This document shows, in pieces, positions 29,222-63,660 of a stretch of DNA of 64,000 nt. The notes beneath the pieces are model-generated. The model saw only the letters and a program-made list of their open reading frames with translations, searched no databases and was not told the origin of the DNA. The DNA is taken from positions 12,067 to 76,066 of the IMG/VR virus record IMGVR_UViG_2563366840_000011; one strand, written 5' to 3'. Each line of letters opens with the position of its first letter. The stretch's first letter is position 1. This DNA is from a virus. Lineage: Duplodnaviria > Heunggongvirae > Uroviricota > Caudoviricetes. Made by a program: the position numbers and the translations under genes.

Positions 29222-29400
29222 TGTGGGGAGGTGATCGTTTCTGCACTGTGAAGAATCTAGGGAAAAATGCCGGGAAGGCCGATGAATAGAGAGATTGCGT
29301 GGATTCTGTGATTTTGCACTGCAAAAAATAAAATGAGAAAAAATAGCTATTTTTGCGTTTAATTCTGCACTCGAATGAAAGGCTTTAGATCCTTTTTAAA
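29222..29400 (+). repeat. Mu-like left end with repeated candidate transposase-binding motifs
   Basis: GTTTCTGCACTGTGAAG, TTTTGCACTGCAAAAAA and TTCTGCACTCGAATGAAAG within the first ~170 bp; the same TTTTGCACTG-type motif recurs inverted at the right end. Confidence 0.6.
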
Positions 29401-29484
29401 GACCGTTTAAGCATTTTTCGATGCCAAGCACTATACCGTATAGTAGGTTGGTATGTAAGAAGTTGGCTTCAAAATCCATTTCGC

Positions 29485-30054
29485 TTAACCGGCCTTCTTG
29501 TCGTGACTTGTTAGGCCCGCTTCGGCTGTCTGTTGATCAGCCTCAGATGACCCTTTTTTCAGTTGCTCATTCAGCCTAAGCAAACGCTCTTTGTCTTCTA
29601 AGGGGAGATTCATCAGACTCATATCAACATCCTTAACGCTAGCCACAAGACCTACCATGCTGCGAGCGCCTTCCTTAAAGCAGTACTCTAATATTTTTTT
29701 CTGATCATCTGGTTCTAGACTGTCGAAAATCATGTTCCACGCGCATTTAGCAGGGTCTGCATATCCTCTGTGCGCTTCATCAACAGCGATGATGCGATTC
29801 AAATTAGAATCAGCCTCATGCCCAAATGCCAGCCAGTCCAACGTGACATGCTCTTTCGCTGCGATGGCTTGCATGGCAATGAAGGATGGTTCTGTTCCCC
29901 TGCTAAGGTAGTTGTTCAATGTCGAGAATGATAACCCCCAATCTTTTGCCGCAGCCCTTACACTGCGAGTGCCTACGAGAGCTTTTAGTCTCTTGATAAA
30001 GTTTTCTTTTCTCTCTTCATCAAAAGCAAATTCGTTTGCTTTACGGTATCCCAT
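29485..30054 (-). CDS. Prophage repressor (Mu c analog, HTH)
   Basis: 189-aa ORF MGYRKANEFAFDEERKENFIKRLKALVGTRSVRAAAKDWGLSFSTLNNYLSRGTEPS... with HTH-like segment; divergent from ner-A-B. Confidence 0.7.
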   Translation of the reverse strand: MGYRKANEFAFDEERKENFIKRLKALVGTRSVRAAAKDWGLSFSTLNNYLSRGTEPSFIAMQAIAAKEHVTLDWLAFGHEADSNLNRIIAVDEAHRGYADPAKCAWNMIFDSLEPDDQKKILEYCFKEGARSMVGLVASVKDVDMSLMNLPLEDKERLLRLNEQLKKGSSEADQQTAEAGLTSHDKKAG

Positions 30055-30237
30055 TTTCTTTCCTGTTTAACATATTGATTATAAAAGAATTGATTTCAAT
30101 TAGATTCAATCAACCACAAAAAGACAAAAGAAAGAGGTCTTTTTTGCTTTACGTGGTGCAAATTTGGATCAATACTTATCCCAACGGATAACCCCTGCGG
30201 ATTATCCGCCCGGTTAACTTTTTAGGGTAATCGAAGT
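30055..30237. promoter_or_regulatory. Divergent promoter/operator region between repressor and ner
   Basis: AT-rich; repeated TTGATT/TGATTTCAAT/GATTCAATCA motifs and palindrome CGGATAACCCCTGCGGATTATCCG. Confidence 0.5.
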
Positions 30238-30465
30238 ATGGAAAGAAATGAAGTACAGCGTGACTGGCATCGCATTGATATTGTCGCCGAGCTGCACAAG
30301 CGTGGCGTCACTATGCGCGGCCTTTCCGCCAGCGCGGGACTAAAACCCGACACGCTGAAAAATGCGCTGGCACGCTCTTATCCAAAAGGAGAGCGCATTA
30401 TTGCAAATGCTCTCAATTTAGAACCCGCCAGTATCTGGCCAAGCCGTTACAACAAGGACCTGTGA
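30238..30465 (+). CDS. Ner-like DNA-binding protein
   Basis: 75-aa ORF MERNEVQRDWHRIDIVAELHKRGVTMRGLSASAGLKPDTLKNALARSYPKGERIIANALNLEPASIWPSRY; Mu Ner/Nlp-like pattern. Confidence 0.85.
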   Translation: MERNEVQRDWHRIDIVAELHKRGVTMRGLSASAGLKPDTLKNALARSYPKGERIIANALNLEPASIWPSRYNKDL

Positions 30466-30466
30466 C

Positions 30467-32524
30467 ATGTTCGTGACTGTTAACGAATTAGTTGGCGTCC
30501 CTGGATTGCCAACAACACAACAAGGACTGCGATACAGTCTTAAAAAAAGTGCAGGCAACTCCCCTGAACTGGTTCGCAAGCGTGCTGGCAGCAAAGCATT
30601 CGAGTACCACATCGACTGCCTTCCTGAACAGGCGCGTGAAATAGTCAAAGCCCGGCATTATCGGGAGGTGTTGAAACAGTCTGATTGCTCACCCGCTCCA
30701 GCGGCACCAAAGCGGGAAGTCACCACGACCCGTGATGAGCTGGCGTTATTACGGCAGTGCCCGGTATTGCTGGAGCGTGAAGTTTCCGACCTTACCGAAC
30801 GCCAGAAACAGATCGCCGATGCGCGTGCATTATTAGCCGCAGAGGTTGAGCGCCTTCGGGATATCGGTATGTCTCGCGCATCGGCGGTTGAGTTCATCGC
30901 CAAAGAGTCACGCAAGGGTTCACTCCCGGAGAACATCCAGGCTGCGGCTGATATTGCCAATGCCCGTAAAGGCTCCAGCCGCCGTGGCGTGGGGGAAAGA
31001 ACACTCCAGGAATGGCTGTCTGTTTACCTTTCAACCCGCCCTGGTATCGAACGCCTTGCTTTACTGGCCCCAGGCCATCTTAAAGCGCGTAAGCCTGAAC
31101 AGATTAAGTGGCTCCCTGATTTTCTTGCTCACTGGCGGAAACTCTCAGGCCCTTCCCTGGTTGATGCGTGGCGTTCATTCAAGACTGAATGGCAGGCTAT
31201 CTATGCGGGACAGCCAGCGATGCTCGCAGTCTGCCCGTCTTATGATGCCGTTCGCCGTGCGATGGAAAAGTTGCCCAAACGTGAACGCGCTCGCGGCCGT
31301 ATCAGCGGTTCAGCGGCTCTGGCCTTTGAGGTTTACCAGAAACGTGACTGGTCACAGATGCCTGTAAATGGTTGCTGGATTGCGGATGGTAAATCGCTGG
31401 ATATGAAAGTTGCTCATCCGGTCCATGGCCGCCCATTCACGCCCGAACTGACGCTGGTGATTGATGGACGAACCCGCTTCCTGGTGGGCTGGAGCCTGGC
31501 GCTCTCGGAGAACGTCATCGCCGTAGCGGATGCCTATCGCTACGCCATGAAATTCCACGGGAAACCTCTTTTTGTTTATTCGGATAACGGTGGCGGCGAA
31601 ACGAACAAAACGCTGGATGCTGATATCACCGGTATTTTCACCCGCATGGGGATTGATCACCCGACCAGTATTCCTGGCCGACCTCAGTCTCGCGGGATTA
31701 TCGAACGCCTGAACGCCGTAATACCGAGAGCGATCGCCAACAAATTTGATACTTACAACGGATTCGGGGCCGACCGTGAGCATGTCCGGATGACCGGTCG
31801 CGCCATCCAGTCAGCGATTAAGGCTCAGGAGAATGGCCGCGAGCTCACGAGCGTACAGCGTAATGCGCTGCGTAAACTGCCGTCATGGCAGATGCTGCTG
31901 GATACCATTGCCGAGGAAGTCGACAAATACAACAACCTGCATGAGCACAGCGAGTTACCGAAGCGTAATGGTGTTCATATGACGCCAGCACAGTACCGTC
32001 GCGAGGTCCTGGCCACTGAGGGTGACGAGATTGAATATCTGACGGATATCGAACTTCGTGAAGCCTTCATGCCGGAAATGTGCCGTACGGCCCAGAGAGG
32101 CTGGATTGACCTGATGAACAACCAGTATTTCAGCGCTGACCTGATACAGGTCGATGGTGAAGAGGTTCGTGTTGCCTATGACATTCACGACCCTGCCGCC
32201 GTCATCGTTCGCCGTATGGACGGTACTTATGTCTGCACCGCCATCTGGAACGGCAACAAGCGTGCCGCGCTGCCAACCAGCATGATGGATATCGCCGTTG
32301 AGAAACGCCGCCAACGTCGTCTGAAGCGCATTGACGAACAGCGAGAAGAGATTGAAGCAGAGGCGCGAGGACTGCTGCCAGAAAGCGATATGTACCCTGA
32401 TTTCGGCGCATTAATACCATCAGATGCCGAGCGTATTAATGATGACCGGGAACACGTGTTCCTGTTCGAGTCAGAGCGAGAAGAGTGGCTGAAAAGTCAG
32501 GGCAATAAAAAAGCGGCCTTCTGA
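30467..32524 (+). CDS. Mu-type DDE transposase (MuA-like)
   Basis: 685-aa ORF; DDE-core-like segments ...IADGKSLD..., ...VYSDNGGGETN..., ...GRPQSRGIIERLN...; directly follows ner. Confidence 0.9.
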   Translation: MFVTVNELVGVPGLPTTQQGLRYSLKKSAGNSPELVRKRAGSKAFEYHIDCLPEQAREIVKARHYREVLKQSDCSPAPAAPKREVTTTRDELALLRQCPVLLEREVSDLTERQKQIADARALLAAEVERLRDIGMSRASAVEFIAKESRKGSLPENIQAAADIANARKGSSRRGVGERTLQEWLSVYLSTRPGIERLALLAPGHLKARKPEQIKWLPDFLAHWRKLSGPSLVDAWRSFKTEWQAIYAGQPAMLAVCPSYDAVRRAMEKLPKRERARGRISGSAALAFEVYQKRDWSQMPVNGCWIADGKSLDMKVAHPVHGRPFTPELTLVIDGRTRFLVGWSLALSENVIAVADAYRYAMKFHGKPLFVYSDNGGGETNKTLDADITGIFTRMGIDHPTSIPGRPQSRGIIERLNAVIPRAIANKFDTYNGFGADREHVRMTGRAIQSAIKAQENGRELTSVQRNALRKLPSWQMLLDTIAEEVDKYNNLHEHSELPKRNGVHMTPAQYRREVLATEGDEIEYLTDIELREAFMPEMCRTAQRGWIDLMNNQYFSADLIQVDGEEVRVAYDIHDPAAVIVRRMDGTYVCTAIWNGNKRAALPTSMMDIAVEKRRQRRLKRIDEQREEIEAEARGLLPESDMYPDFGALIPSDAERINDDREHVFLFESEREEWLKSQGNKKAAF

Positions 32525-32569
32525 CTGGACATCACAGGCCGCTGATTTACTAAAACAGAGGAAGTAATT

Positions 32570-33463
32570 ATGTCAGCTAAAAATGAACTTGTCGAACTGA
32601 TGAAAGCAAAAGGTCTTAACCAGACGCAGGTCGCCCGCGCTATTGGTAAGAGCTCTGCCGTAATCAGCCAGTACCTGAATAATAAATACGACGGCGATAT
32701 TGCATCGCTGGAAAACGATATTCGTAGCTTTATCGATCGTCAGCATGAAAAAGAGCGCTCGGCACGTATCAGCGTCAAATTTGTTGATACCCCAACAACG
32801 CGCAAAGCCGTTGATGTTATACGCATGGCGCACGTCGAAGGTGATATCAACGTGCTTTACGGCGAAGCCGGTCTGGGCAAGACGATGATTTGCAAAGCCT
32901 ACGTCTCTAAATACCGGGATGCGTTGCTGATTGAGGCCGACCCTGGCTACACCGCACGCGTAATCCTGGAAGAACTCTGCAACCTGCTGGGGCTCAGTAC
33001 CCGCGGCAATATGCATGAACTTAGCGAAGCCTGCATCAACAAGCTGCGCGACTCCGGGCGCGTGCTGATTATTGATGAAGCTGAGAACCTCCCTCTGCGT
33101 GCGCTGGAATCTATCCGCCGCATTCATGACAAAACGGGGATCGGCATCGTCCTGGTTGGTATGCCTCGCCTGATTCTGAACCTCAAGGGCAAACGCGGTG
33201 AGCTCGTACAGCTCTATAGCCGTGTCGGTTTCGCCCTCAACCTCGGGCATAGCCTGCCGGGTGCTGATATTGACGTCATCGCCAGCAGCGTTCTCCCGGA
33301 TGGCCTGAATGAAGACCTGAGCAAAGCGCTGTTCAACGCATCAAAAGGTAATGCCCGCCGACTGTTCAAGCTACTGCGCGGTGCAGTTCGTACCAGTGCA
33401 ATGAATGATGTTCCGGTCAGCGGTCATATCGTCAATCAGATAGCCGAAATGCTGATCCATTAA
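32570..33463 (+). CDS. Transposition ATPase (MuB-like, AAA+)
   Basis: 297-aa ORF with N-terminal HTH-like region and Walker A GEAGLGKT, Walker B LIIDEAE. Confidence 0.88.
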   Translation: MSAKNELVELMKAKGLNQTQVARAIGKSSAVISQYLNNKYDGDIASLENDIRSFIDRQHEKERSARISVKFVDTPTTRKAVDVIRMAHVEGDINVLYGEAGLGKTMICKAYVSKYRDALLIEADPGYTARVILEELCNLLGLSTRGNMHELSEACINKLRDSGRVLIIDEAENLPLRALESIRRIHDKTGIGIVLVGMPRLILNLKGKRGELVQLYSRVGFALNLGHSLPGADIDVIASSVLPDGLNEDLSKALFNASKGNARRLFKLLRGAVRTSAMNDVPVSGHIVNQIAEMLIH

Positions 33464-33483
33464 TCCGGATTTAAGGGGGTTTT

Positions 33484-33762
33484 ATGCTGACTTTAACATC
33501 AGATAACACGCTGGTTTCAGCGCTGTATCGTACCGAAGCTGTTGTCGTTTCCCTCCAGGCTCGTGGCGTGGAAGTGAAAGGCATCGTGGTTCGGGAAGGT
33601 CAGCCGGTCATTCGTATTCAGCGCCATGCCATGTGTGATTACCTGCTCACCAGCGGTAAAGCCAGCTACATCGAATATGGCCAGGGGAAATCGGGTAAAT
33701 ACCGCCAGGGCCTTTTCATCCAGGACGGCTGTCGTGTCGTCTGGTCAGAATCTATTCATTGA
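33484..33762 (+). CDS. Hypothetical early protein
   Basis: 92-aa ORF directly after B; no recognised motif. Confidence 0.45.
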   Translation: MLTLTSDNTLVSALYRTEAVVVSLQARGVEVKGIVVREGQPVIRIQRHAMCDYLLTSGKASYIEYGQGKSGKYRQGLFIQDGCRVVWSESIH

Positions 33763-33774
33763 AGGAGAAAATAA

Positions 33775-33966
33775 GTGGCAAAAGTCGTAATCAGCATAAC
33801 CGATGCACCGCGCGGCATCAGTGTGGAGTGCCAGGTTTTTCCAGATGAAAAAGACAGTGAACTGACCCAGAAGGTCGCAGCCACTGTGGGGTATGGCCTG
33901 GCTGGCCATGTTAACGAAAAAATCCGTAATGCAATCCAGAAAAAGGGGAAGTCCAATGTCCACTGA
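33775..33966 (+). CDS. Hypothetical early protein
   Basis: 63-aa ORF MAKVVISITDAPRGISVECQVFPDEKDSELTQKVAATVGYGLAGHVNEKIRNAIQKKGKSNVH. Confidence 0.4.
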   Translation: MAKVVISITDAPRGISVECQVFPDEKDSELTQKVAATVGYGLAGHVNEKIRNAIQKKGKSNVH

Positions 33967-34606
33967 AAACACCATCAAACAATACACTACCACCCAGGCT
34001 CCAGAGGGATACTGGACTGATGCTCGCGGCGTTCTGACGCCAGTCAGTCTGATTAAAGAAATCGACCGCGATCGCGACCAGCTCGTTGGCGAACTTGTTG
34101 AGCAGGCGATTGTCGTTTCCTCTGCTCTGAGTGAGCTGAAATCACGCGCCTTTGCTGATATTCAGGCGTTTATCGACCTTTCGGCTGAAAAATACGGGGC
34201 CACCAAAGGCGGTAAAAAAGGTAATGTCACGCTCTACAGCTTTGATGGCCGTTTCAAAATCCAGCGAGCCATGCAGGACAGAATTGCCCTGGACGAGCGT
34301 ATACAGACTGCAAAGGCGCTTATTGATACCTGTCTTGCTGACTGGACAGAAGGTGCCCGCCCGGAGCTGAAGGCGCTGGTCAATGAGGCGTTTGATACTG
34401 ACAAAGAAGGCAATATCAATACCGGGCGCGTTCTGGCACTTCGTCGCCTGGAAATTGATGATGAACGCTGGCAGCAAGCCATGCAGGCAATCGGTGAAGC
34501 GGTGCAGGTCGTCGGTAGCCGTTCTTATATCCGCGTGTATGAACGTGTTGGTGACTCGGATGAATATCGTCCGATTGCTCTCGATATTGCCGGTGCGGGG
34601 GTGTGA
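33956..34606 (+). CDS. Hypothetical early protein (resembles a conserved Mu-like prophage family of unknown function)
   Basis: ATG at 33956 after AAAAGGGGAAG; MSTENTIKQYTTTQAPEGYWTDARGVLTPVSLIKEIDRDRDQLVGELVEQ... 216 aa. Confidence 0.55.
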   Translation: MSTENTIKQYTTTQAPEGYWTDARGVLTPVSLIKEIDRDRDQLVGELVEQAIVVSSALSELKSRAFADIQAFIDLSAEKYGATKGGKKGNVTLYSFDGRFKIQRAMQDRIALDERIQTAKALIDTCLADWTEGARPELKALVNEAFDTDKEGNINTGRVLALRRLEIDDERWQQAMQAIGEAVQVVGSRSYIRVYERVGDSDEYRPIALDIAGAGV

Positions 34607-34607
34607 T

Positions 34608-34841
34608 ATGTATGTTCTGGTAGATCGCACCCATGCCCGTAAACCATGCAGTCCATTTATGTCTTATGCAGTCAGCGCTGTACTTGCTGAGCAAGTTGGC
34701 GATTTTCATAACGCTGCAACAGCCTGGAAAACTGCATTCAGCCTGGCGAAAACAGAGGTCAATTCTATCTGGGCAATATCGCGAATGGAGTTCTGTCTTC
34801 ATGCGGCGAATCGTGGTTGGGGGATTCCGAATGAAAGCTAA
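34608..34841 (+). CDS. Hypothetical early protein
   Basis: ATG at 34608: MYVLVDRTHARKPCSPFMSYAVSAVLAEQVGDFHNAATAWKTAFSLAKTEVNS... Confidence 0.45.
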   Translation: MYVLVDRTHARKPCSPFMSYAVSAVLAEQVGDFHNAATAWKTAFSLAKTEVNSIWAISRMEFCLHAANRGWGIPNES

Positions 34842-35022
34842 AGAGTTCAATCTGCGATACCCGGTTGGCAGCGTCTTTATTTATCAGCCAAATCCGGTTT
34901 TACGTGGCGGTAAGGTCGTCAGCACCGTTGACCAGGCTCGTGACTGCCGCGATGTATCGGTAGTTGAAATAAATCAAGAACCTTATTTCGCCAATATTAA
35001 ATCGCTGATACCAGCTAGCTGA
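34831..35022 (+). CDS. Hypothetical early protein
   Basis: ATG at 34831: MKAKEFNLRYPVGSVFIYQPNPVLRGGKVVSTVDQARDCRDVSVVEINQEPYFANIKSLIPAS. Confidence 0.4.
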   Translation: MKAKEFNLRYPVGSVFIYQPNPVLRGGKVVSTVDQARDCRDVSVVEINQEPYFANIKSLIPAS

Positions 35023-35102
35023 AATAACTTTTAATTAAACCTGTTTTAAATATGGCGTAAACCCGCCGGGGCTGGCTTACGCCTGAATTAAGGAGTTCTG
35101 TA

Positions 35103-35825
35103 ATGGAAAATAAAGAGAAATATCTCCAGCGTATTAAAAAACTGCTGGCAATGGCGCGTAATAACTCCAGCGCTGAAGAAGCAGCACTCGCGCTGAGCCG
35201 CGCCCAGCGCCTGATGGAAACCCACAAACTGACTGAAGCCGATGCGGCGATGATGGATATCAACGAGGCATCCACTCAGAAAGCCCCATCACATGCTGAA
35301 AAGATGCCTGAATATATGGCGCTACTGGCTCATATGATAGCGCTGGCATTCGGGGTTAAGTTCTATACCACCCACGGTCATGAGCGCTGGGATGCTCCAG
35401 CAAAACGCACCATCACCTATTACGGACCGGACGAACGTCCGCAGGTTGCAGCTTATTCCTTCGAGGTTCTTGGCAAGCAGCTGGCGAAGGCCCGTCGTGA
35501 ATACACCGCCACGTTGCGTAAAAATATCAAACCCGCCACCAAGGTGGCTCGTGCCGATACGTTCTGCTCTGCCTGGGTGAATGGTGCCTATGCCGTTATC
35601 AGTGACTTTGCCGTCACTGAGGCCGAAGAGACTCTCATGGAGAGCTATCGCAGCAAAAAACTGAGTCAGGGCATGAAGAAACTGGAGCCTCGTAAACCGG
35701 GAAAAGCCAGCGGCACCGATGATGCAGCTAATCAGGGTTATCGGGCTGGCCGCAATGCGCAGTTACATCATGCTGTGACGGGGTCTTCAAATGCTGTAGC
35801 TCGAATTGAAGGGGGACCTCAATGA
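35103..35825 (+). CDS. Early protein of unknown function (N-terminal region resembles DUF2786-type domain)
   Basis: 240-aa ORF MENKEKYLQRIKKLLAMARNNSSAEEAALALSRAQRLMETHKLTEADAAMMD... Confidence 0.5.
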   Translation: MENKEKYLQRIKKLLAMARNNSSAEEAALALSRAQRLMETHKLTEADAAMMDINEASTQKAPSHAEKMPEYMALLAHMIALAFGVKFYTTHGHERWDAPAKRTITYYGPDERPQVAAYSFEVLGKQLAKARREYTATLRKNIKPATKVARADTFCSAWVNGAYAVISDFAVTEAEETLMESYRSKKLSQGMKKLEPRKPGKASGTDDAANQGYRAGRNAQLHHAVTGSSNAVARIEGGPQ

Positions 35826-36325
35826 GAGATATCACCGCACTGGCGCAACACCTAAGAGTGTATGCCGAAGAATTCAGTTATCCGGTTCTATCTCCTGATG
35901 ATTGCAAAACGCTGGTAGATGCGCTGGAAGCAGGACAACCACACCACAACGGCCTGATGCAGCTCTCTAATGAACTGGTGATGGCTAAGCAGAGAATCGC
36001 AGAACTGGAGTCCGGCACAGCCACCGCGTCGCAGAGCGATTACTTTGCCTCTCTGGTAGCAATGGCTCGTGTTTCAGCAGAAAAAGCGATGCGGAAGTTC
36101 CCTCAGCCGAACTACGTGCTTCTTAAGGTTGCGGAGGAAGCTGGCGAGGTCGTGCAGGCCGGGGTCCATTACGCAGAGAAACGGATGGAGTGGCAGCAGG
36201 TAGAGGGCGAGATTGTCCAGCTGTTGGCAATGCTGATTCGCCTGGTGACGGAGGGCGACCAGATTAATGGCATCACTCCTCCGGCCGATGGCATCCAGGT
36301 TATCGAAGGGGATAATTATGACTGA
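35822..36325 (+). CDS. Candidate MazG-like nucleotide pyrophosphohydrolase-domain protein
   Basis: 167-aa ORF; C-terminal half ...NYVLLKVAEEAGEVVQAGVHYAEKRMEWQQVEGEIVQLLAMLIRL shows an EExGE ... E-x-E pattern resembling MazG/HisE-type motifs (second motif divergent). Confidence 0.4.
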   Translation: MRDITALAQHLRVYAEEFSYPVLSPDDCKTLVDALEAGQPHHNGLMQLSNELVMAKQRIAELESGTATASQSDYFASLVAMARVSAEKAMRKFPQPNYVLLKVAEEAGEVVQAGVHYAEKRMEWQQVEGEIVQLLAMLIRLVTEGDQINGITPPADGIQVIEGDNYD

Positions 36326-36683
36326 ACAACAGCGCAAGCCGGTGGTATTCATCGCCGGGCCGATGACCGGGTATCAGGATTATAACCGGGCAGAGTTCGA
36401 CGCTGAGGCTAGTGTCCTGTCCGATCGAGGCTTCACCGTACTAAATCCGGCGATACTTCCAGATGGCCTTGAGCACCAGCAATATCTGGCAATTACGCTG
36501 GCGATGCTGGAGCAGGCTGATGCGGTATTCCTGCTGAACGGGTGGGAAAAGAGTACCGGCGCTACCAGGGAGTTTGATCGTGCCTGTGAACTAGGGCTGC
36601 TGTTCCTTTACCAGGACTGGGAAAGCGTGTCTGTTGCGATCCACCGTAAGCGTCACCCATTAACGGAGGTGAGTTATGCATAG
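36318..36683 (+). CDS. Candidate nucleoside 2-deoxyribosyltransferase-like (Rossmann-like) protein
   Basis: ATG at 36318: MTEQQRKPVVFIAGPMTGYQDYNRAEFDAEASVLSDRGFTVLNPAILPDG...ADAVFLLNGWEKSTGATREFDRACELGL; VFIAGP start and late conserved Glu resemble NDT/Rcl-like fold proteins. Confidence 0.45.
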   Translation: MTEQQRKPVVFIAGPMTGYQDYNRAEFDAEASVLSDRGFTVLNPAILPDGLEHQQYLAITLAMLEQADAVFLLNGWEKSTGATREFDRACELGLLFLYQDWESVSVAIHRKRHPLTEVSYA

Positions 36684-37278: not shown

Positions 37279-37293
37279 AAGTAAGTCATTACA

Positions 37294-37317
37294 GCAGGCA
37301 CTTCATAAAGTGCCTGC
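37294..37317 (+). promoter_or_regulatory. Perfect 8-bp inverted repeat upstream of gemA/mor (candidate regulatory site or terminator-like hairpin)
   Basis: GCAGGCAC-ttcataaa-GTGCCTGC between the last early ORF and the gemA-like gene. Confidence 0.35.
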
Positions 37318-38707: not shown

Positions 38708-38708
38708 A

Positions 38709-55528: not shown

Positions 55529-56856
55529 GCTGGGAAGATTCATTACAGGATGCCTCATTCAGGGGCGTCCGCTTCGATGTGGTTAATACCCGTGACAGCG
55601 CCAGCCGCGACATTGCGACGTATGAGTATCCCTATGTCGACGGTGGTGATGTTGATGACCTTGGCCGCAAGCCTCGTAACCTGAGAATGACGGTCCTTTT
55701 CTGGGGTGACGATTACGATGTGCGACTCCAGGCGTTTCTGGCCGCGCTGGATACACGCGGCAGCGCGGAGTTAATACACCCGGTTTTCGGCTCCATGACG
55801 GGCATGCAGTGCATTGAGTATCAGGCATCGCATGAAGCGGAGAACGTTGATTACTGCGTTGTCGAAGTGGTCTTTATCCAGGGGGGACTTAATCTGCCTT
55901 TCTTTGGCAGCGACTTCCCGCTGTCGAAAGCCGATATCATTTTCAACCAGGCGCAATCCGCTCTGGAGAAAGCCCAGACAGCCATCGACAATATTCTCTC
56001 GCCTCTGCGTACAGCGAAAAAGTGGATGAAGAAAGCGAAATCGCTGGCAACAACGACGCTGAATATGGTGACCATGCTTAAGGGGGAACTGACAGGATTT
56101 GTCAGTACCACCTCGGATTTTGTTAATTATCCGAAAGCGTTCATGAATGATCTGCAGAGTGCGCTGAGCCTGACGTCGCTTCAGTCCAAATCAAGTGTCA
56201 GTAATAACCCAGGAAGCTATTCACAGTCCTCAGACGTTTCCGGTACAGCGGGCATCGTGATGGCCGACTGGAAGAATGGCCGTAACAATCTGCAGGAGGT
56301 GGCCGCATTACCTCAGCAAATCGTGACCGGGCAAAAGACGGTTGCTGTTGCTGTTCCGGCAGGCTCATCAACCTCGGATATTACTGAGGTGGTAACGGCG
56401 GTAAAAATCCAGGTTGCAATCCAGCTGGCGCTTGATGCTTCCGACATACTCAGTGACAGCAGCATCAGCGATATTCTGTCTCCAGTCGATATTGAGCAGA
56501 TCACCAACGATACCAGGACGGCCATTCAGACGGCAATCGACCAGACGCGGGACACCTTTGCTGCCGATACGCAAAACGTGAGCGCCGGTGAAACACCGGC
56601 TGGCGTGACATGGCAACCCGTGGTTGAAAGCCTCAAGGATATCGCCCTGACCGTTCAGGAGCTGGGCGCAGCGGTTATTACCAGCAGACCGCCACTGACG
56701 ACGCGAGTGATATTGGCCGACACCAACCTGCATTTGCTGGCCCATCTGTGGTACGAGGACTACACCCGCGCCACCGAGTTGTTGCGTCTCAATCCGACAC
56801 TACGTAATCCTAACAACATCAAAGCCGGTGACGTTCTGAATGCCTACTCAAGATAA
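55525..56856 (+). CDS. DNA circularisation protein (Mu N-like)
   Basis: GTG start after AGGAGG; 443-aa ORF MSWEDSLQDASFRGVRFDVVNTRDSASRDIATYEYPYVDGGDVDDLGRKPRNLRMTVLFWG... Confidence 0.8.
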   Translation: MSWEDSLQDASFRGVRFDVVNTRDSASRDIATYEYPYVDGGDVDDLGRKPRNLRMTVLFWGDDYDVRLQAFLAALDTRGSAELIHPVFGSMTGMQCIEYQASHEAENVDYCVVEVVFIQGGLNLPFFGSDFPLSKADIIFNQAQSALEKAQTAIDNILSPLRTAKKWMKKAKSLATTTLNMVTMLKGELTGFVSTTSDFVNYPKAFMNDLQSALSLTSLQSKSSVSNNPGSYSQSSDVSGTAGIVMADWKNGRNNLQEVAALPQQIVTGQKTVAVAVPAGSSTSDITEVVTAVKIQVAIQLALDASDILSDSSISDILSPVDIEQITNDTRTAIQTAIDQTRDTFAADTQNVSAGETPAGVTWQPVVESLKDIALTVQELGAAVITSRPPLTTRVILADTNLHLLAHLWYEDYTRATELLRLNPTLRNPNNIKAGDVLNAYSR

Positions 56857-58057
56857 AGATTCGCAGAATACAGTGAGCCTGGTTATTGATGGCAAAATCC
56901 ACAGTGCATGGAGCCGCTATCAGATTGACTCCGATTTTCTTATCCCCTCCGATGCCTGGAGTGTAACGCTTGGGCTGCCTGATGGTATTTTCCCTCCGGC
57001 CATTAAACGTGGTGTGCCGGTGCTGGTCAGGGTGGGTAATGATGTTGTCATGTCCGGTCGGGTGGATGTGGTTCAGCGCCGGGTATCCCGTCAGCAGGTT
57101 TCTTTATCTCTTTCCGGTCGCGATGGTGCAGCCGTGCTTGTTGACTGCGCTTCACCCGTTTTTACCTCCCGCCAGCTCAGTCTTGAAGAGGTGATCGCCC
57201 AGGTTGTCAGACCGCTGGGGATAACGAACATCCGCATCGAGGCTGAATCATCCCTGCGTAATGACAAGGTCAGCGTGGAGCCCGGAGAACGTGCGTGGGA
57301 TACCCTTGAGCGTGCAGCTGCTGCACGCGGGTTATGGCCATGGTTTGAGCCAGATGGCACGCTGGTAATTGGAGGGCCGGATTACACAAAAGACCCTGTA
57401 GCCACGCTTGTTCTGAATCGTGACGGTCGGGGAAATAATGTCCTCGATCTCAGTGACCGGTCATCCATTACCGGTGCGTTCTCTGAACTGACAATGCTGG
57501 CACAGGGACACGGCCAGGGGAAAAAGTCAGGAAGACTGGAAGTTATTGACGTTGATGATCAGAGCGCTGAGGCTGAAGACGATGATGATGCCGACGCAAT
57601 TTATGACAGCACCGGCTCTGCAGAGAATGGCTTTCATGGCTTACGTAGTACCGTTCGCGACAGTACCGTACCTTTCTATCGTCCGCAGATTATGGTTGCT
57701 GGTGATGCTGATAATCAGGCGCAGGTTGATTATCGCGCGAGAAAGGCCATGGCTGACGCCCGTCTGAACGGGTTTGATCTGACAGTAATTGTTAAAGGCC
57801 ATCGCATGGAGAACGGTCAGTTATGGCAACCGGGCCAGCGTATTCGTGTCCGAAGCGAGCCGCATGGCATTGATGACATTTACTTCCTCATGGGAAGAGA
57901 GTTTTCAGGTGGTCGTCCAGACAACACCATTACCACCCTGCGGCTCAAAGAGGATGGAATATGGATACCGGATGCTTATCCGAAAAAACGCAAATCACGT
58001 AAGCGTCGCGCCAAAGTAAATAAAGAGCTGGAGATTATCGATGTGGAACAAAATTGA
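56840..58057 (+). CDS. Tail/baseplate hub protein (Mu P-like)
   Basis: 405-aa ORF MPTQDKDSQNTVSLVIDGKIHSAWSRYQIDSDFLIPSDAWSVTLGLPDG... Confidence 0.8.
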   Translation: MPTQDKDSQNTVSLVIDGKIHSAWSRYQIDSDFLIPSDAWSVTLGLPDGIFPPAIKRGVPVLVRVGNDVVMSGRVDVVQRRVSRQQVSLSLSGRDGAAVLVDCASPVFTSRQLSLEEVIAQVVRPLGITNIRIEAESSLRNDKVSVEPGERAWDTLERAAAARGLWPWFEPDGTLVIGGPDYTKDPVATLVLNRDGRGNNVLDLSDRSSITGAFSELTMLAQGHGQGKKSGRLEVIDVDDQSAEAEDDDDADAIYDSTGSAENGFHGLRSTVRDSTVPFYRPQIMVAGDADNQAQVDYRARKAMADARLNGFDLTVIVKGHRMENGQLWQPGQRIRVRSEPHGIDDIYFLMGREFSGGRPDNTITTLRLKEDGIWIPDAYPKKRKSRKRRAKVNKELEIIDVEQN

Positions 58058-58646
58058 CTCTCGTATTAACACGGCGTTAAACCGTATCAGAAAGGCCTTC
58101 AGGGGCGTTTTAATAAGGGTTAACAGCGGCGGTGATATTCAGACCATTCAGGGTAAAGGTCTGGCCACTGAGTCTCTGCAGGATGTGGAGATGTTTCAGC
58201 AGTACGGTTTTACATCCAACCCGCCCAGGGGGACTAAAGCCATTGTGCTCCCGCTTAACGGGCGCACCAGTCATAGCGTGGTGATTGCCACGGAACACGC
58301 TGCATACAGGCTAAAGAGCCTGAAAAGTGGTGAGCTTGCCATTTATTCGGATGAAGGAAGCAACATTATTCTGAAGCGCGGAAAAATAATTGAAGTAAAC
58401 TGCGATGAATATATAGTTAATACTAAAAAGCACACGGTGAATACCGAACAACATATTGTTAATACCAAAACGTATAAAACCACAGCCTCAGAGCGGGCAG
58501 ATTTTGATACACCATTGCTGAAAGGCAGTAATGAAGTCGCTGACGGCAAGTCTACGCTGAACACCATGCGTGAGACTTATGACGGTCACGACCACGACCA
58601 CGGCGGTGATGCAGGCACAACGCAGAAACCTAATCAGCAAATGTAA
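58041..58646 (+). CDS. Baseplate spike/assembly protein (Mu gp45-like) with short tandem peptide repeats
   Basis: 201-aa ORF; repeats YIVNTKKHTVNTEQHIVNTKTY; His/Asp-rich C-terminus GHDHDHGGD. Confidence 0.7.
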   Translation: MWNKIDSRINTALNRIRKAFRGVLIRVNSGGDIQTIQGKGLATESLQDVEMFQQYGFTSNPPRGTKAIVLPLNGRTSHSVVIATEHAAYRLKSLKSGELAIYSDEGSNIILKRGKIIEVNCDEYIVNTKKHTVNTEQHIVNTKTYKTTASERADFDTPLLKGSNEVADGKSTLNTMRETYDGHDHDHGGDAGTTQKPNQQM

Positions 58647-58682
58647 TTTGTGGTAACGTAAGTTCTCCTTCAAAAGCAATAC

Positions 58683-58700
58683 CCACTGAACCCCTTCACC
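58683..58700 (+). promoter_or_regulatory. Conserved late box, copy 3 (upstream of gp46-like baseplate gene), candidate late promoter/activator site
   Basis: CCACTGAACCCCTTCACC, immediately followed by GATAAT, then 10-bp perfect inverted repeat TTCCATGCCG/CGGCATGGAA (58713-58741) containing the first ATG. Confidence 0.55.
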
Positions 58701-58735
58701 GATAATTTAAATTTCCATGCCGGTAGTATTACGGC

Positions 58736-59086
58736 ATGGAAATGTTGATTGATCCAACGACCGGCGATTATACCGGCGACAGCTCAGACTCTTTAGCGAA
58801 TGCCGTCTACTTACGGCTGATGACGCCCCTTGGCTCATGGTGGGCTGATCCAACTCTGGGCTCTCTTTTGCATACACTCCGCCGCGAAAAGGATGTGTCT
58901 CGCGTTCAACAACTCGCGGTGCAGTATTCGCGGCAGGCCCTGCAACCGATTATTGACGACGGTCGCGCCCAGTCCATTTCCGTTACTGCAGAGCACTGGC
59001 AAAAAGGCTGGATGCTGCTTCATATCACCGTCACGTCTGCGAGCGGAACGCCGCAGACCTGGAAATATCCGGTTAAGGTCAGCTGA
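58736..59086 (+). CDS. Baseplate protein (Mu gp46-like)
   Basis: 116-aa ORF MEMLIDPTTGDYTGDSSDSLANAVYLRLMTPLGSWWADPTLGSLLHTL...; translation may start at the second ATG (58742). Confidence 0.7.
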   Translation: MEMLIDPTTGDYTGDSSDSLANAVYLRLMTPLGSWWADPTLGSLLHTLRREKDVSRVQQLAVQYSRQALQPIIDDGRAQSISVTAEHWQKGWMLLHITVTSASGTPQTWKYPVKVS

Positions 59087-60153
59087 TGCCATTCATTACC
59101 AAAAATGCCGCGCAAATACGCACTGACATTCTGCGGGATATCAAAAATCTCCTGCAGTTGTCAGATGATACGCTGGGCCCGGACAGCGACTGGTACATCC
59201 GGGCATCGAGTGTAGCCAGTGTTGCCGAGGGGCTTTATCAGCATCAGGGATGGATAGTCCGTCAGATCTTTCCGGATACTGCTGATTCGGAATTCCTCTA
59301 TCTGCACGCCCGTTTACGTGGTTTAAGCAAAAAAGCAGCCAATAGCGCCTCCGGGCCTGCCACGTTTACCGGCGAACCAGGAGCGGTGGCCGCTGCCGGT
59401 CTTGTGTTCAAACGCGACAGTGTTTCGTGGACAACAACCGAAGATATTATTGTCGGGTCAGATGGAAAATCATCGGTAAACGCAGTGTCTTCTCTGGCCG
59501 GAACCACTGGTAACACCACTTCCGTCACATCGGCCACACTGACCACAACACCTGATGGGTTTGACAGCACAGTGACAGTAGGCCTGATGACTGGCGGAAC
59601 AGATGAGGAAACGGATGCAGAGCTGCTTGCTCGTCTGCTTGAAATCATCCGCCGACCTCCTGCAGGCGGCAATAAATATGATTACAAACGCTGGGCGCTT
59701 GAGGTATCAGGCGTATCCGCCGCATATGTTTACCCTTTGCGGCGGGGGCCGGGTACCGTTGATGTTGTGATCACGTCTGCAGGTGGGCTGCCATCTCAGG
59801 ATGTGATCGACAGGGTGCAGGCTCACATTGACGATGTCCGGCCTGTTACAGCAAAAAACACGCTGGTGCTCATGCCTGTCATCCGTACATTTGACGTCCT
59901 CGTGAAGGTATCACTGGAGGGCATCACCCTCGCAGCAGCCAAACAGGCTGTCGCCGGAACGCTGGAGGACGATGACTCGCGCCGAGAGCCTGGAGTGGCT
60001 TTTATTCGCAGCCAGGCGGGGACATTGATTTCTCTAATTCCGGGTATTACCGACTATGACATCGTTACACCATCGGCAAATATTCAACCGATAATCGATG
60101 CCACGAAAGTCGAATGGCTCAGATTAGGAAACGTTGAGGTAGAGCTGCTATGA
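59086..60153 (+). CDS. Baseplate J-like protein (Mu gp47-like)
   Basis: 355-aa ORF MPFITKNAAQIRTDILRDIKNLLQLSDDTLGPDSDWYIRASSVASVAEGLYQHQGW... Confidence 0.8.
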   Translation: MPFITKNAAQIRTDILRDIKNLLQLSDDTLGPDSDWYIRASSVASVAEGLYQHQGWIVRQIFPDTADSEFLYLHARLRGLSKKAANSASGPATFTGEPGAVAAAGLVFKRDSVSWTTTEDIIVGSDGKSSVNAVSSLAGTTGNTTSVTSATLTTTPDGFDSTVTVGLMTGGTDEETDAELLARLLEIIRRPPAGGNKYDYKRWALEVSGVSAAYVYPLRRGPGTVDVVITSAGGLPSQDVIDRVQAHIDDVRPVTAKNTLVLMPVIRTFDVLVKVSLEGITLAAAKQAVAGTLEDDDSRREPGVAFIRSQAGTLISLIPGITDYDIVTPSANIQPIIDATKVEWLRLGNVEVELL

Positions 60154-60722
60154 GCTACTTCACGCTGTTAAATCGTCTGCTGCCACTTGTTTCGTACAGC
60201 CCGGGCCAGCCTCTGCTTGATGCATCATTGCGATCTGAATCAGGTGTTTTTGAGACTCTCGATGCGTCTGCAGGGCTTGTTGAAGGTGGAGTTACTCCAT
60301 TTTATGCACGCAGCCTTTTGTATGACTGGGAACGCGTCCTGGACCTTACTCCTGCTGAAGGTGCGACATACCAGCAACGCCAGCAGCGTGTACTGGCTAA
60401 ACTGGCTGAAGTCGGTGGTCTCAGTATTCCGTACTTTACTCAGTTGGCAAGCAACCTTGGCTACATCATCACAATTGATGAACCGCAACCTTTCAGGGCG
60501 GGAGTTGGCCGCGCCGGTGATCGCCTCTGGGTTGAAGACATTATCTGGGTCTGGCGCGTCAATATTCAGAACTCAGGAACTCAATCCTATCGCTTTCGCT
60601 CAGGCAGTTCAGCTGCAGGTGAGCGCCTGACAACGTTTGGTGATCCGATTATTGAAGACGTCTTCCGTGATCTCAAACCAGCCCATACATTTTGCTACTT
60701 CGCATATCAGGAGAATGAATAA
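60150..60722 (+). CDS. Tail/baseplate protein (Mu gp48-like)
   Basis: 190-aa [69 protein letters not shown]... Confidence 0.75.
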
Positions 60723-61366
60723 TGCGGCCCTTAATGCCACCGGTGCAGACGCCGGATAATCTTTTCCATGATGGTAATCCGCTCACAGGTGAGCTGGGGA
60801 CCATTGTTGATGCTGAGCATCTGAATAACGTGCAGGGAGCTGTCAGAGATGCGCAGTCGGAGCTTATTACTGTCCTGAACGCTGCCGGTATTAATGTTGA
60901 TCCTTCTAAACAAAACCAGTTATTAACAGCATTAAAAGCGCTGTTACTGAGTCGCTCAAATCCGTTTGGCGATATCAAATCGGATGGCACCGTGAAAACG
61001 GCTCTCGAAAATCTTGGTTTGGGAGAAGCGGCTAAAAGGAATGTAGGGACAGGGGCGAATCAGATACCTGATATGGGTAGCTTCACGCTTTCTGTTTCAG
61101 ATACTGGATATCAAAAATTACCATCAGGTTTTATTCTTCAGTGGGGCTCAATCGGCGCTCCAGGCATTGCACAGGATGTAGTAACCCATTTCCCGATTGC
61201 ATTTCCAAACAGATGTCTGCGTGTTTTGGTCTCACAAGACTACACACCAGATAGCGGGGCTGTTGGTTATATTGCCTGTGCAGGTTTTAGTCCCGACCCG
61301 GTTAAATTTATATCCAGAGCCAGTACTCCTGGCCTCGGCGCTTCATTTTTAGCGTTAGGCTGTTAA
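60722..61366 (+). CDS. Tail fibre protein (constant N-terminus plus currently expressed variable part)
   Basis: 214-aa [44 protein letters not shown]...; followed by fibre assembly gene; an alternative fibre C-terminus is encoded inverted downstream. Confidence 0.8.
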
Positions 61367-61387
61367 TTTAGCTATATGGAGTGAAAA

Positions 61388-61828
61388 ATGAATTACATAT
61401 ATTCCGCGACTACAAACTCTTTCTATCCGCTGGAGATGAAAGAGGATTACACTCAAGCTGACTCATGGCCAGATGATGCTGTTGAAGTTGATGAGCAAGT
61501 GTATATTGAGTTTTCCGGATTACCGCCGAAAGGAAAAATCCGTATCGCTGGAGAAAATGGTTTTCCTGCATGGTCTGAAATTCCACCACCAACATATGAG
61601 GAACAGATTGCTGCAGCCGAACTGGAAAAGCAGCAACTGATTAATCAGGCCAACGAATACATGAACAGTAAGCAATGGCCCGGTAAAGCCGCTATTGGTC
61701 GTCTGAATGGTGAGGAACTGGCGCAATATAATTTGTGGCTGGATTATCTGGATGCACTGGAGCTGGTTGATACTTCCGGTGCGCCAGATATTGAATGGCC
61801 TACGCCTCCGGCAGTTCAGGCCAGATGA
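61388..61828 (+). CDS. Tail fibre assembly protein (Mu U-like)
   Basis: 146-aa ORF MNYIYSATTNSFYPLEMKEDYTQADSWPDDAVEVDEQVYIEFSGLPPKGK... Confidence 0.8.
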   Translation: MNYIYSATTNSFYPLEMKEDYTQADSWPDDAVEVDEQVYIEFSGLPPKGKIRIAGENGFPAWSEIPPPTYEEQIAAAELEKQQLINQANEYMNSKQWPGKAAIGRLNGEELAQYNLWLDYLDALELVDTSGAPDIEWPTPPAVQAR

Positions 61829-62411
61829 CATCCGGCGCGGTGCTGGTATCTGTTGCCGTCACCGCGTCAATGTAATCCAGCACAGCGTTAAGGCGGGTTG
61901 TTTCTGCCTGCGTCAGTTTACGTCCGGCCTGCAATTTCAGCTGAATCAGACTGATGGAGGCCATTGCAGTATCAATCAGCGACTGGCGCTGTGCTTCTGC
62001 TGCATCTACTGCTGCGCCGTGCTGTGCCTCGGTATCCGTCACCCATTTCTCACCATCCCATTTATCGTATGGGGTTAACGGGGCGATAGTGGTTGTATTA
62101 TCAGGGTAATCACCCGGAGCTGTGATTTCTTTTGATTCCCCTGTTTCGGTGCTAAAAACGATTTCACCGCGATGGTCTGGCATATATTCCCATGATTTTA
62201 AATCTGCTGAACGGCAGATAGTATAACCAGCCTTATATGTACCAGGAGCATCTAAACAGGAATACGCCGGAATACCGACGCCGACAGCGAGATATTCAGT
62301 TGATGTAGAAATATATTCCCGCGTTTCTCCGTTGTAGTTGTAAACGGTAATAAAGCCAGCTTCCGTGGCAAATCCGTTTTCATCCAAAGTGATTTTTTTT
62401 GTGGTCATCAT
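61800..62411 (-). CDS. Alternative tail fibre assembly protein (U'-like), inverted orientation
   Basis: 203-aa minus-strand ORF MMTTKKITLDENGFATEAGFITVYNYNGETREYISTSTEYLAVG...; convergent with the plus-strand assembly gene. Confidence 0.75.
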   Translation of the reverse strand: MMTTKKITLDENGFATEAGFITVYNYNGETREYISTSTEYLAVGVGIPAYSCLDAPGTYKAGYTICRSADLKSWEYMPDHRGEIVFSTETGESKEITAPGDYPDNTTTIAPLTPYDKWDGEKWVTDTEAQHGAAVDAAEAQRQSLIDTAMASISLIQLKLQAGRKLTQAETTRLNAVLDYIDAVTATDTSTAPDVIWPELPEA

Positions 62412-62956
62412 GATGCCCTTACAATGTAGTTAAATGCAATGTTACGTGGTCGGTTTTCTTCCGCAGTTGGTACAACTCTGGCGGCGGAAAAACCTACGTC
62501 ATACCTATTACCGGGCGATGAGGTTGTTTGACCAGCGCCGCCTTCGTATACAGCATTAAATGGCCCTGTTACCCACTCGTCTGCTGTCCTCTGGCTTCCC
62601 GCAGTGGTCATAAGTCCCAAGAGCTTCCCTGATATGTCCCTTATAGCATCACCTTGTGCGGACAGCAGCGCTCGCCCTGAATCGACCCCACGCCCGTCAT
62701 CCCAGCCACGAATAAACTCACCACGTAAATCTGGCAATTTATTTGTCGGATAAACTTTTGCCAGTTCCGGATACTCTTCGGCAGAAAAAGGTGCACCATT
62801 GCATTTCAGCCAGCCTGTTGGCGGAGTGGCTGAAGGCCACGGAACAGGCACGCCAACGGGTAATGCCGAACCTTCTCCCAAACCAACCTTTTGTGGATTG
62901 AGATTTTTAATGTCAGCGAAGCTCTTCGTCAAAAGTGAAACTCTGATAACCTGGTT
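62408..62956 (-). CDS. Alternative tail fibre variable C-terminal segment (Sv'-like) lacking its own start
   Basis: Minus-strand frame open from the stop at 62957-62959: NQVIRVSLLTKSFADIKNLNPQKVGLGEGSALPVGVPVPWPSATPPTGWLKCNGAPFSAEEYPELAKVYP...; no ATG or SD at its 5' end. Confidence 0.65.
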   Translation of the reverse strand, partial: NQVIRVSLLTKSFADIKNLNPQKVGLGEGSALPVGVPVPWPSATPPTGWLKCNGAPFSAEEYPELAKVYPTNKLPDLRGEFIRGWDDGRGVDSGRALLSAQGDAIRDISGKLLGLMTTAGSQRTADEWVTGPFNAVYEGGAGQTTSSPGNRYDVGFSAARVVPTAEENRPRNIAFNYIVRAS

Positions 62957-62993
62957 CTACTGACGAACAGAAGGATAAGCAGGAGATCGCTTT

Positions 62994-63554
62994 ATGATTA
63001 TTGGGTATGCACGAGTATCAAGTAACCATCAGGACACCGAGCTTCAGATGCAGGCGCTCAGAGCTGCTGGCTGTAAGTTAATTTTTGAGGAAAAGGCTTC
63101 TGGCCGTAAGACGAACCGACCAATTTTGAAGAAAGTGGTTGAGATGCTTGAACCCGGTGACGAGCTGGTCATCTGGAAGCTGGATCGTATCGGTCGCAAT
63201 GTGCTGCACGCATTATTGACGTTTCAGAGCCTCGCAGAACGCAATGTTAACATCCGTTCTATTACTGATGGCGTTGACCTGAGTACCGCCAGTGGGCGCT
63301 ATAACTTCCGTAATATTCTCTCTGCGGCACAATATGAGTCTGATCTGAATAGTGAACGCACTTTGGCGGGGTTAGCGGTTGCCCGCGCTAAGGGGAGGAT
63401 TGGCGGACGTAAGCCTAAGTTCACTAATGAGCACTGGGATGCGTTTGAACGGGAAATTAAGTCCGGCTGCTCACATCGTGATATAGCTCTCAAATATGGA
63501 GTCGGCCTGTCGACTCTCTACAAACGTTATCCGGCTCAGCAAGAGCATCAGTAA
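62994..63554 (+). CDS. gin: Serine DNA invertase (Gin/Pin/Hin family)
   Basis: 186-aa ORF MIIGYARVSSNHQDTELQMQALRAAGCKLIFEEKASGRKTNRPILKKVVEMLEPGDELVIWKLDRIGRN... resolvase-type catalytic domain plus C-terminal HTH; last gene before the right end. Confidence 0.9.
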   Translation: MIIGYARVSSNHQDTELQMQALRAAGCKLIFEEKASGRKTNRPILKKVVEMLEPGDELVIWKLDRIGRNVLHALLTFQSLAERNVNIRSITDGVDLSTASGRYNFRNILSAAQYESDLNSERTLAGLAVARAKGRIGGRKPKFTNEHWDAFEREIKSGCSHRDIALKYGVGLSTLYKRYPAQQEHQ

Positions 63555-63559
63555 ACACT

Positions 63560-63660
63560 CTTTGCGTTCATTTTTGCACTGTGCAGAATGTGTCTTTTTG
63601 GCACCTTCCGACAGTGCAAAATTTATCGCGTTTTTGTGCAAAAAAAATCGCCGCGCTACA
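63560..63660 (+). repeat. Mu-like right end with inverted copies of the terminal TTTTGCAC(T)G motif
   Basis: TTTTTGCACTGTGCAG, CAGTGCAAAAT and TTTTTGTGCAAAAAAAATCG within the last 100 bp; element ends ...CGCGCTACA. Confidence 0.6.

Follow-up and report, generated by a model that had tools for sequence, protein, structure and literature searches.

The window analysed here is a stretch of 64,000 nucleotides, positions 12,067 to 76,066 of the IMG/VR virus record IMGVR_UViG_2563366840_000011 (Caudoviricetes), and positions are given in its numbering unless another record is named. Positions 29222-63660 form a complete-looking Mu-like prophage of 34,439 bp within Escherichia coli rspB. Short repeats of the type TTYTGCAC are clustered at both of its termini. 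These repeats are very probably end-recognition sites of the prophage transposase, designated here as L1, L2 and L3 (left end) and as R1, R2 and R3 (right end, with R3 inverted).

Prophage boundaries and target-site duplication

Boundaries were determined by alignment with the uninterrupted rspB of E. coli K-12 MG1655. Homology ends exactly at 29221 and restarts at 63661. The prophage starts with TGTGGGGAGG (TGTGGGG...) and ends with GCGCTACA, and the TG and CA termini proposed in an initial annotation made from the sequence alone proved base-exact against the empty site. In MG1655 this site reads ACCACCGT CAGC GTGCACACC; the two flanks overlap by four bases, which gives a 4-bp duplication with copies of CAGC at 29218-29221 (left, host rspB) and 63661-63664 (right). 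The attL-like left end (29222-29370, + strand) starts with 5'-TG and contains L1, L2 and L3, and its terminal TGTGGGGAGGTGA is kept in at least 20 relatives. The right terminus (63652-63660, - strand) reads ...GCGCTACA-3', or TGTAGCGCG in the inward direction, and TGTAGCGCGGCG is kept in relatives.

Duplications of 4 bp were also found at five independent insertions of Sp18-like relatives (AGAG, CATC, GTCT, TTAC and CGCA; junctions of loci L010, L091, L092, L093 and L094). A fifth base matched only once, and the depositors of two DDBJ records themselves annotate 4 bp. Strand transfer by Mu occurs 5 bp apart (PMC5357137), and a D3112-like phage shows a 5-bp shift as well (PMC5977238). The consistent 4-bp duplication indicates that the strand-transfer stagger is variable within the MuA family. 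The relatives were inserted in many different genes. A complete 768-bp insertion sequence, IS1, with both inverted repeats is located at 28113-28880, also in rspB and 341 bp to the left of the prophage, and rspB has thus been interrupted twice.

Clustering and anatomy of the terminal repeats

The repeat word itself stood in a modified form. Exact TTTTGCAC occurs four times in the window against 3.9 expected, so that its window-wide count is at chance, and two of the three left copies are TTCTGCAC instead. For TTYTGCAC, ten matches were found in the window, seven of them within 2 x 170 bp at the termini (Poisson P of 5e-17 to 1e-14). Left-end copies on the + strand are TTCTGCACTG at 29239, TTTTGCACTG at 29312 and TTCTGCACTC at 29363, with 8-mers ending 25, 98 and 149 nt from the left terminus. 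Right-end copies on the - strand are TTTTGCACAA at 63636-63643, TTTTGCACTG at 63614-63621 and TTCTGCACAG at 63581-63588, with 8-mers ending 25, 47 and 80 nt from the right terminus. All six of these copies point inward. These positions agree with the annotated arrangement of at least three copies within 170 bp of the left end and three within 100 bp of the right end in inverted orientation. The comparable offsets described there apply to the first copy, which ends at 25 on both sides; the other copies lie at different offsets. The seventh terminal TTYTGCAC is on the + strand at 63572-63579 (offsets 82-89 from the right terminus) and is inverted. In the prophage interior (29371-63563), TTYTGCAC was not found on either strand, with about 3.4 copies expected from shuffles (P about 0.03), a weak signal that could reflect avoidance of internal pseudo-ends.

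Ends of relatives (18 left and 8 right) were aligned on the 8-mer. The terminus-side flank is kept in one register at L1, R1, R2 and L3. At position -8, all 24 R2 and L3 sites have G; GCG or GTG is the usual sequence from -8 to -6, with W-T after it, and the inner flank is nearly uninformative past a T at +1. Judged from this alignment, the full putative site is bipartite, GYGWT-N3-TTYTGCAC followed by T, about 17 bp in length. The GYGWT half, which is nearer the terminus, is common to the whole Sp18/SuMu-type clade (our own working definition, not a published family), and the inner 8-mer is lineage-specific.

Full putative sites were assigned at five positions in the window prophage. L1 (29231-29246, + strand, offsets 10-25) reads GTGAT-CGT-TTCTGCAC in a register kept in 18 left ends, and L3 (29355-29370, + strand, offsets 134-149) reads GCGTT-TAA-TTCTGCAC. 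At the right end, R1 (63636-63651, - strand, offsets 10-25) reads GCGAT-TTT-TTTTGCAC, R2 (63614-63629, - strand, offsets 32-47) reads GCGAT-AAA-TTTTGCAC, and R3 (63564-63579, + strand, 82-97 nt from the right terminus), in the opposite orientation to R1 and R2, reads GCGTT-CAT-TTTTGCAC. L2 (29312-29319, + strand, offsets 91-98) consists of the 8-mer TTTTGCAC preceded by GA and is without the GCG half. The same half is missing from an extra 8-mer, TTCTGCAC, at 63581-63588 (- strand, offsets 73-80), which is palindromic with the R3 8-mer. Since the inverted right-end copy is better kept in relatives than the neighbouring direct copy, R3 was taken to be the inverted site, as in Mu.

When used as a search model, GYGWTNNNTTYTGCAC gave six perfect matches in the window, five of which are L1, L3, R1, R2 and the inverted R3; 0.93 matches were expected at one mismatch or fewer. 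The sixth, GTGATGCTTTCTGCAC at 21184-21199, was taken as chance: it lies in a host open reading frame (ORF; 21076-22164, - strand), lacks a TG terminus at 9 nt upstream and has no companion copy in the vicinity.

Conservation of the ends in related elements

Megablast searches with the left 3.4 kb gave no match among 50,697 phage records, and the prophage was not found in 5,426 complete E. coli genomes except for end remnants on one plasmid. By tblastn, transposase identity was 64-68% for Klebsiella prophages, 52% for Pseudomonas phage VW-6B, 43-47% for Yersinia phages, Klebsiella phage Kp4866-3 and Mu-like inserts in Shiga toxin (Stx) phages, 41% for a Mannheimia phage and SuMu, and about 30% for the D3112 group. 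Closest among the deposited phages by transposase (41-68%) are SuMu, Mannheimia 3927AP2, Klebsiella ST405-OXA48phi1.1, Kp4852-3 and Pseudomonas VW-6B. In the closest phage record, MK388859, the sequence has been cut back to coding boundaries, so that the ends are missing. Packaged genomes of transposable phages bear variable host DNA at either end, and the records of the relatives Tongde and VW-6B carry non-phage sequence at their ends. Prophages of this type are common in Citrobacter, Klebsiella, Enterobacter and relatives.

A scan of one genome per species yielded 80 loci with a related transposase, and a left end was detected automatically in 34 of them, 1.2-2.0 kb upstream of the transposase gene. 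All of these left ends open with a terminus of the TGTGGGG type, and their 8-mers end at 25 and, in further copies, near 98 and 149. In phage records and in at least 15 viral contigs, right ends begin with TGTAGCGCGGCG or a variant of this sequence, and behind it lie 8-mers that end at 25 and 47. Viral contigs were scanned for pairs of 8-mers spaced 22 bp apart; most matches were due to chance, and a correctly placed terminus accompanied only 15 of the 143 matches listed. With 34 of 80 left ends and about 15 independent right ends recovered, the array passed the test that the initial annotation had set for it, namely conservation at the ends of related elements.

The comparative set comprised more than 40 ends. 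Offsets of 25, about 98 and about 149 (left) and of 25, 47 and about 80-90 (right) are kept across Enterobacterales, Pseudomonas, Neisseriales and Moraxellaceae, in over 40 related prophages altogether. The 8-mer differs by lineage (TTYTGCAC, TTWTGCAT, TTCTGGAC, TTTGATAY, TTCAAGAT or TTTTAAAC) while the outer GCG half is unchanged, and the classes are referred to below as TGCAC, TGCAT, TGGAC, GATAC and AAGAT. The window element shares the features by which the clade was defined: GYGWT-N3-8-mer ending at 25 at both ends and also at 47 at the right end, a helix-turn-helix of the form ANARKG...L..W, and a 4-bp duplication.

Sp18-type prophages of E. coli O157 and other Shiga toxin-producing E. 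coli, for example the Mu-like inserts in LC727895 and LC727881, fall into this transposase clade as well, at 44% identity. Their 8-mers end at 25 on both sides and at 47, in the same end plan, and they share the 4-bp duplication and the outer GCG half, but they differ from the window prophage in the inner 8-mer (TTTGATAC), in the candidate reading helix LSEI(S/T)LKRW and in com/mom at the right end. Kp4852-3 and VW-6B share the end plan of the window prophage with 8-mers of the TGCAT and TGGAC class, respectively; the tail gene set of VW-6B is different and non-Mu-type.

Several further observations were made on the ends of relatives. In the Sp18-like lineage with the 8-mer TTTGATAC, right ends terminate in ...GCGCTATA-3' (L010, 42421-42430; also L009 and L008). 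This makes TA the last dinucleotide, where DDE elements almost universally have CA; TG is retained at the left end. The E. coli mcr-10 plasmid pMCR10_2641_2 (L002, 2500-3170 and 6001-7305) carries a right end near-identical to that of the window prophage and, 2.8 kb beyond it, a related left end with repressor and ner, both ends being cut by IS26. The order of right end, host segment and left end points to two former copies of the prophage or to a rearrangement mediated by transposition. Clade prophages of different classes were found together in one Sodalis metagenome-assembled genome (several elements, TGGAC and GATAC; L025, L041, L064 and L088) and in Serratia fonticola RP0009 (TGCAC and TGCAT; L027 and L037). 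Such mixtures fit a role of end specificity in preventing cross-reaction between co-resident elements.

Fold of the transposase and co-variation with the 8-mer

The transposase ORF was found at 30467-32524 (+ strand) as initially annotated and encodes a MuA-family DDE transposase of 685 aa, assigned by Pfam, phrog_310, hhalign and Foldseek. Pfam matches were Mu-transpos_C, HTH_Tnp_Mu_1 (I-alpha) and a weak rve (integrase core). The protein is 23% identical to MuA, and hhalign aligned the two with a probability of 99.6% over 599 columns. A profile of 28 clade transposases matched the MuA I-alpha domain, the retroviral integrase and TnsB cores, and the MuA barrel among sequences of the PDB. An AlphaFold2 model (mean predicted local distance difference test score 71.6) shows a winged-helix N-terminus and two helical domains, at residues 88-200 and at 216-292; these are followed by a core of the RNase H type, a barrel and a long helix. 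By Foldseek, the model comes closest in the PDB to the Mu transpososome (4fcy_A, E 4e-15, 561 columns); TnsB of Tn7 and of CRISPR-associated transposons ranks second, ahead of IstA. The transposase is a distant relative of MuA.

The candidate 8-mer-reading helix comprises residues from about 175 to 189 (VGERTLQEWLSVYLS), after a conserved ANARKG. Within this predicted helix, the short segment VGERTLQEW (residues 175-183) tracks the 8-mer class. At the position aligned with R178, every TGCAC and TGCAT element carries R and every TGGAC element S; GATAC elements carry I or P, and the AAGAT element D. The corresponding segment forms are G/S-x-R-(S/T/A/V)-L for TGCAC and TGCAT, G-K-S-S-L for all TGGAC, S-E-I-(S/T)-L-K-R-W and once S-V-P-T-L for GATAC, and S-R-D-P-L for the AAGAT element. 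The segment has the helix-turn-helix form G-V-S/G-x-x-T-L-x-x-W, and QVSASTLRDKY of MuA I-beta resembles it; hhalign is untrustworthy in that stretch.

Percent identity by protein segment failed to separate the 8-mer classes. On trees of the catalytic core and of the DNA-binding region the classes are scattered, no class forms a clade, and one TGGAC and one GATAC element are sisters. Co-variation at the level of single columns and prediction on held-out loci were therefore used. In loci whose ends had escaped automatic detection, the residue predicted the class of the clustered upstream 8-mer in 11 of the 11 loci with any cluster. Because the 8-mer changes with this residue across lineages, the motif is tied to the transposase, and the co-variation together with the held-out prediction is the strongest evidence that the transposase may read the 8-mer via this helix. 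The divergent recognition code suspected in the initial annotation is supported by the same changes and by the low identity to MuA.

By analogy with Mu, it is the N-terminal region of the transposase (residues about 88-292) that would bind the end sites. Of each site, the inner 8-mer would be read by the helix-turn-helix, with R178 as the key residue of the recognition helix, and the conserved outer GYGWT by another part of the N-terminal region. Subunits bound to both ends would then pair these in a transpososome, which would nick beside the terminal TG and CA, and the 3' ends would be joined with a 4-bp stagger to a target picked with the MuB-like ATPase.

The region preceding these domains also varies. 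In a Citrobacter murliniae relative (L011, 3995-4204) identity to the window transposase is 97-100% over residues 88-600 and only 64% over the first 70 residues (window 30467-30676). At least three types of N-terminus occur in the clade (MFVTVNEL..., MSIWLTAKE... and MSMKSHYSAEEL...). From these sequences it is suggested that an I-alpha-like enhancer- or operator-binding module is swapped independently of the end-binding module.

Comparison with Mu and alternative explanations

The 22-bp MuA consensus, which we take to be TGNTTCAYTNNAAGYRCGAAAA, was validated by scanning Mu's own ends, where it recovers L1 (6-27), L3 (151-172), R2 (28-49) and the inverted R3 (56-77). At the ends of the window prophage no match with five or fewer mismatches was obtained, and none inside the prophage at three; the only match in the window is in host DNA. 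The description of the repeats as distinct from the Mu ends accordingly holds for their sequence. It does not hold for their plan, since number, order, spacing and orientation are Mu-like. Both elements have TG...CA termini and three sites per end, with L1 at the terminus, a gap and then L2 and L3; R1 and R2 are 22 bp apart and R3 is inverted. The inner halves end at 25 and 47 in the window prophage, and the RCGAAA halves of Mu at 27 and 49. The L1-L2 and L2-L3 spacings are 73 and 51 nt in the window prophage versus 105 and 41 in Mu. Read from its terminus, the right end opens with 12 nt (TGTAGCGCGGCG) that are similar to their counterpart in Mu (TGAAGCGGCG), and the 8-mer resembles the TTCAY half-site of Mu.

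This last resemblance underlies the alternative that deserves most weight, a shift in register. Here the 8-mer would correspond to the outer TGNTTCAYT half of the Mu site, 22-bp sites would run inward (R1 at offsets 18-39, R2 at 40-61), and the distance between array and cleavage point would exceed that in Mu by about 12 bp, one helical turn. TTYTGCACT matches TGNTTCAYT at 6-7 of 9 positions, and similar stretches can be set against each other at R1 (CACAAAAACGCGATAAA in the window, CACGAAAAACGCGAAAG in Mu) and at L1 (CAC-TGTGAAGAA and CAC-TTGAAGTA); MAFFT places an 11-nt gap exactly so. However, the conserved flank of the 24 independent R2 and L3 sites is on the terminus side, the inner flank being near-uninformative beyond +1, and it was the terminus-side 16-mer model that recovered five sites including the inverted R3. 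The register shift is regarded as unlikely. The conservation pattern of the 18 left and 8 right ends favours the positional correspondence, in which the 8-mer would take the place of the inner RCGAAA half of Mu.

A second alternative is that the repeats are bound by the repressor, Ner, the terminase (at a pac site) or a host factor, and would serve regulation or packaging of the element rather than transposition. It draws on the CCGGGAAGG block at 29270-29278, which resembles the region of the Mu left end that holds the packaging signal. A pac site would be needed at one end only, whereas the motif is present at both ends, inverted and at fixed distances from the cleavage points; there is no copy in the repressor-ner control region or elsewhere inside the prophage, and the 8-mer class tracks the transposase residue in more than 30 elements and in the held-out test. 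Binding by such a factor in place of the transposase is considered highly improbable. That the repeats arose by chance or composition, or that the right-end palindrome TTTTGCAC-T-GTGCAGAA, 18 nt past the gin stop codon, is the terminator of the invertase gene, is least credible of all and for the array as a whole is already refuted by the comparative data: the chance-level count of exact TTTTGCAC and the perfect 16-mer in a host gene are set against clustering at P about 1e-14 and positions kept in dozens of elements with different 8-mers, the stem would be 5 bp around a 1-nt loop, and a terminator scan found no hairpin there.

Some points weigh against end recognition by the transposase as laid out above. 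The MAFFT alignment with the Mu ends is ambiguous, in that the 8-mer is matched to the inner RCGAAA by position or to the outer TTCAY by sequence. L2 and the copy at 63581-63588 are without the outer half, and some 8-mers may not be full sites. The hhalign alignment is unreliable around residues 150-215, which makes the Mu-domain equivalent of the reading helix uncertain, and the profile of 28 clade transposases found no MuA I-beta or I-gamma among PDB sequences. The co-variation statistics ignore phylogeny and module recombination.

In the wider comparison, the domain order and fold of the transposase and the gene order c, ner, A, B ... gin are common to Mu and the window prophage. The latter differs in its CI-type repressor, in its duplication of 4 instead of 5 bp and in an I-beta/I-gamma region that is unrecognisable by sequence. 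It has the features of transposable Mu-like phages, namely a MuA-family DDE transposase with an adjacent MuB-like ATPase, TG...CA termini with a short duplication, and multi-site inverted ends (predicted sites). The 22-bp consensus, the 5-bp duplication and the nucleotide or high protein similarity of Mu proper (Muvirus) are absent from it. TnsB of Tn7 and CRISPR-associated transposons, the second-best structural match, likewise has multiple unevenly spaced sites per end, tandem helical readers and an AAA+ partner. Unlike the window element, these transposons are not phages, duplicate 5 bp and have other site sequences and numbers.

Gene content and neighbouring features

The genes are ordered as CI-type repressor (- strand), Ner-like protein, transposase, MuB-like ATPase and virion genes, with a Gin-like invertase last. 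The repressor gene (29485-30054, - strand) gave a weak match to Pfam Phage_CI_repr. The Ner-like DNA-binding protein (30238-30465, + strand) matched Pfam HTH_35 (E 6e-28). The MuB-like AAA+ transposition ATPase (32570-33463, + strand) matched Pfam AAA_22/TniB and phrog_296, 'DNA transposition protein' (E 2e-94). A Mu-type virion set is encoded, with portal, terminase, protease, major head, sheath, tape-measure and baseplate proteins. The Gin-like serine invertase (62994-63554, + strand; Pfam Resolvase and HTH_7) is the final gene before the right end. Two - strand ORFs (61800-62932) lie between the tail-fibre genes and gin, and by analogy this region looks like an invertible tail-fibre cassette of the Mu G-segment type.

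In the intergenic region between repressor and ner (30055-30237), the words TTGATT/AATCAA recur and a near-palindrome of 24 bp, CGGATAACCCCTGCGGATTATCCG, is present; such elements could be operators, or the enhancer for the I-alpha-like domain. In the L1-L2 spacer, the block GGGAAAAATGCCGGGAAGGCCGATGAAT at 29260-29300, which contains CCGGGAAGG, is like positions 22-50 of the Mu left end (CGAAAAAAACCGGGAGGACATTGGAT), and CCGGGA(A/G)G also follows L1 in Sp18-like and Yersinia relatives. The packaging signal of Mu lies between L1 and L2, and by analogy the spacer block may be a pac site.

Significance

Lineage-specific terminal site arrays in Mu-like prophages are an established idea and are expected for such phages. 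Putative transposase-binding arrays were described at Mu-like prophage ends in the work on KS10, where they are unlike those of Mu when the transposase is divergent, and six putative binding sites each were given for Mu, FluMu, Pnm1 and Sp18 (PMC2628397). Mu-like inserts in the Stx phages of the LC7278xx series were described as Sp18-like (PMC10132054), and for SuMu inverted repeats were listed and binding sites not defined (PMC3447690). In the part of the literature that was covered, no description of the TTYTGCAC type, of clade-wide co-variation or of a 4-bp rule was found. The co-variation and the 4-bp stagger are the parts of possible specialist interest. The base-exact ends and the site map help to annotate insertions of this kind and to spot gene disruptions such as that of rspB, and the matched changes in protein and sites lend themselves to a simple swap experiment on end recognition by transposases of the MuA type. 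The comparative set also points to possible orthogonal reagents for in-vitro transposition.

A broader proposal is put forward tentatively, as a possibility that the present data leave short of probable: the end specificity of the clade may have been re-programmed several times, by changes in the helix (E177/R178 versus K-S, E-I, V-P and R-D) that are accompanied by changes in the inner 8-mer of all six sites, while the outer half and the geometry stayed fixed and strand transfer used a stagger of 4 bp, not the 5 bp of Mu. If so, the clade would form a naturally occurring collection of Mu-type transposition systems, orthogonal to one another and with a protein-DNA code that can partly be read. 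For the phages themselves, such switches in specificity may keep prophages in the same host from mobilising one another's ends or interfering with them.

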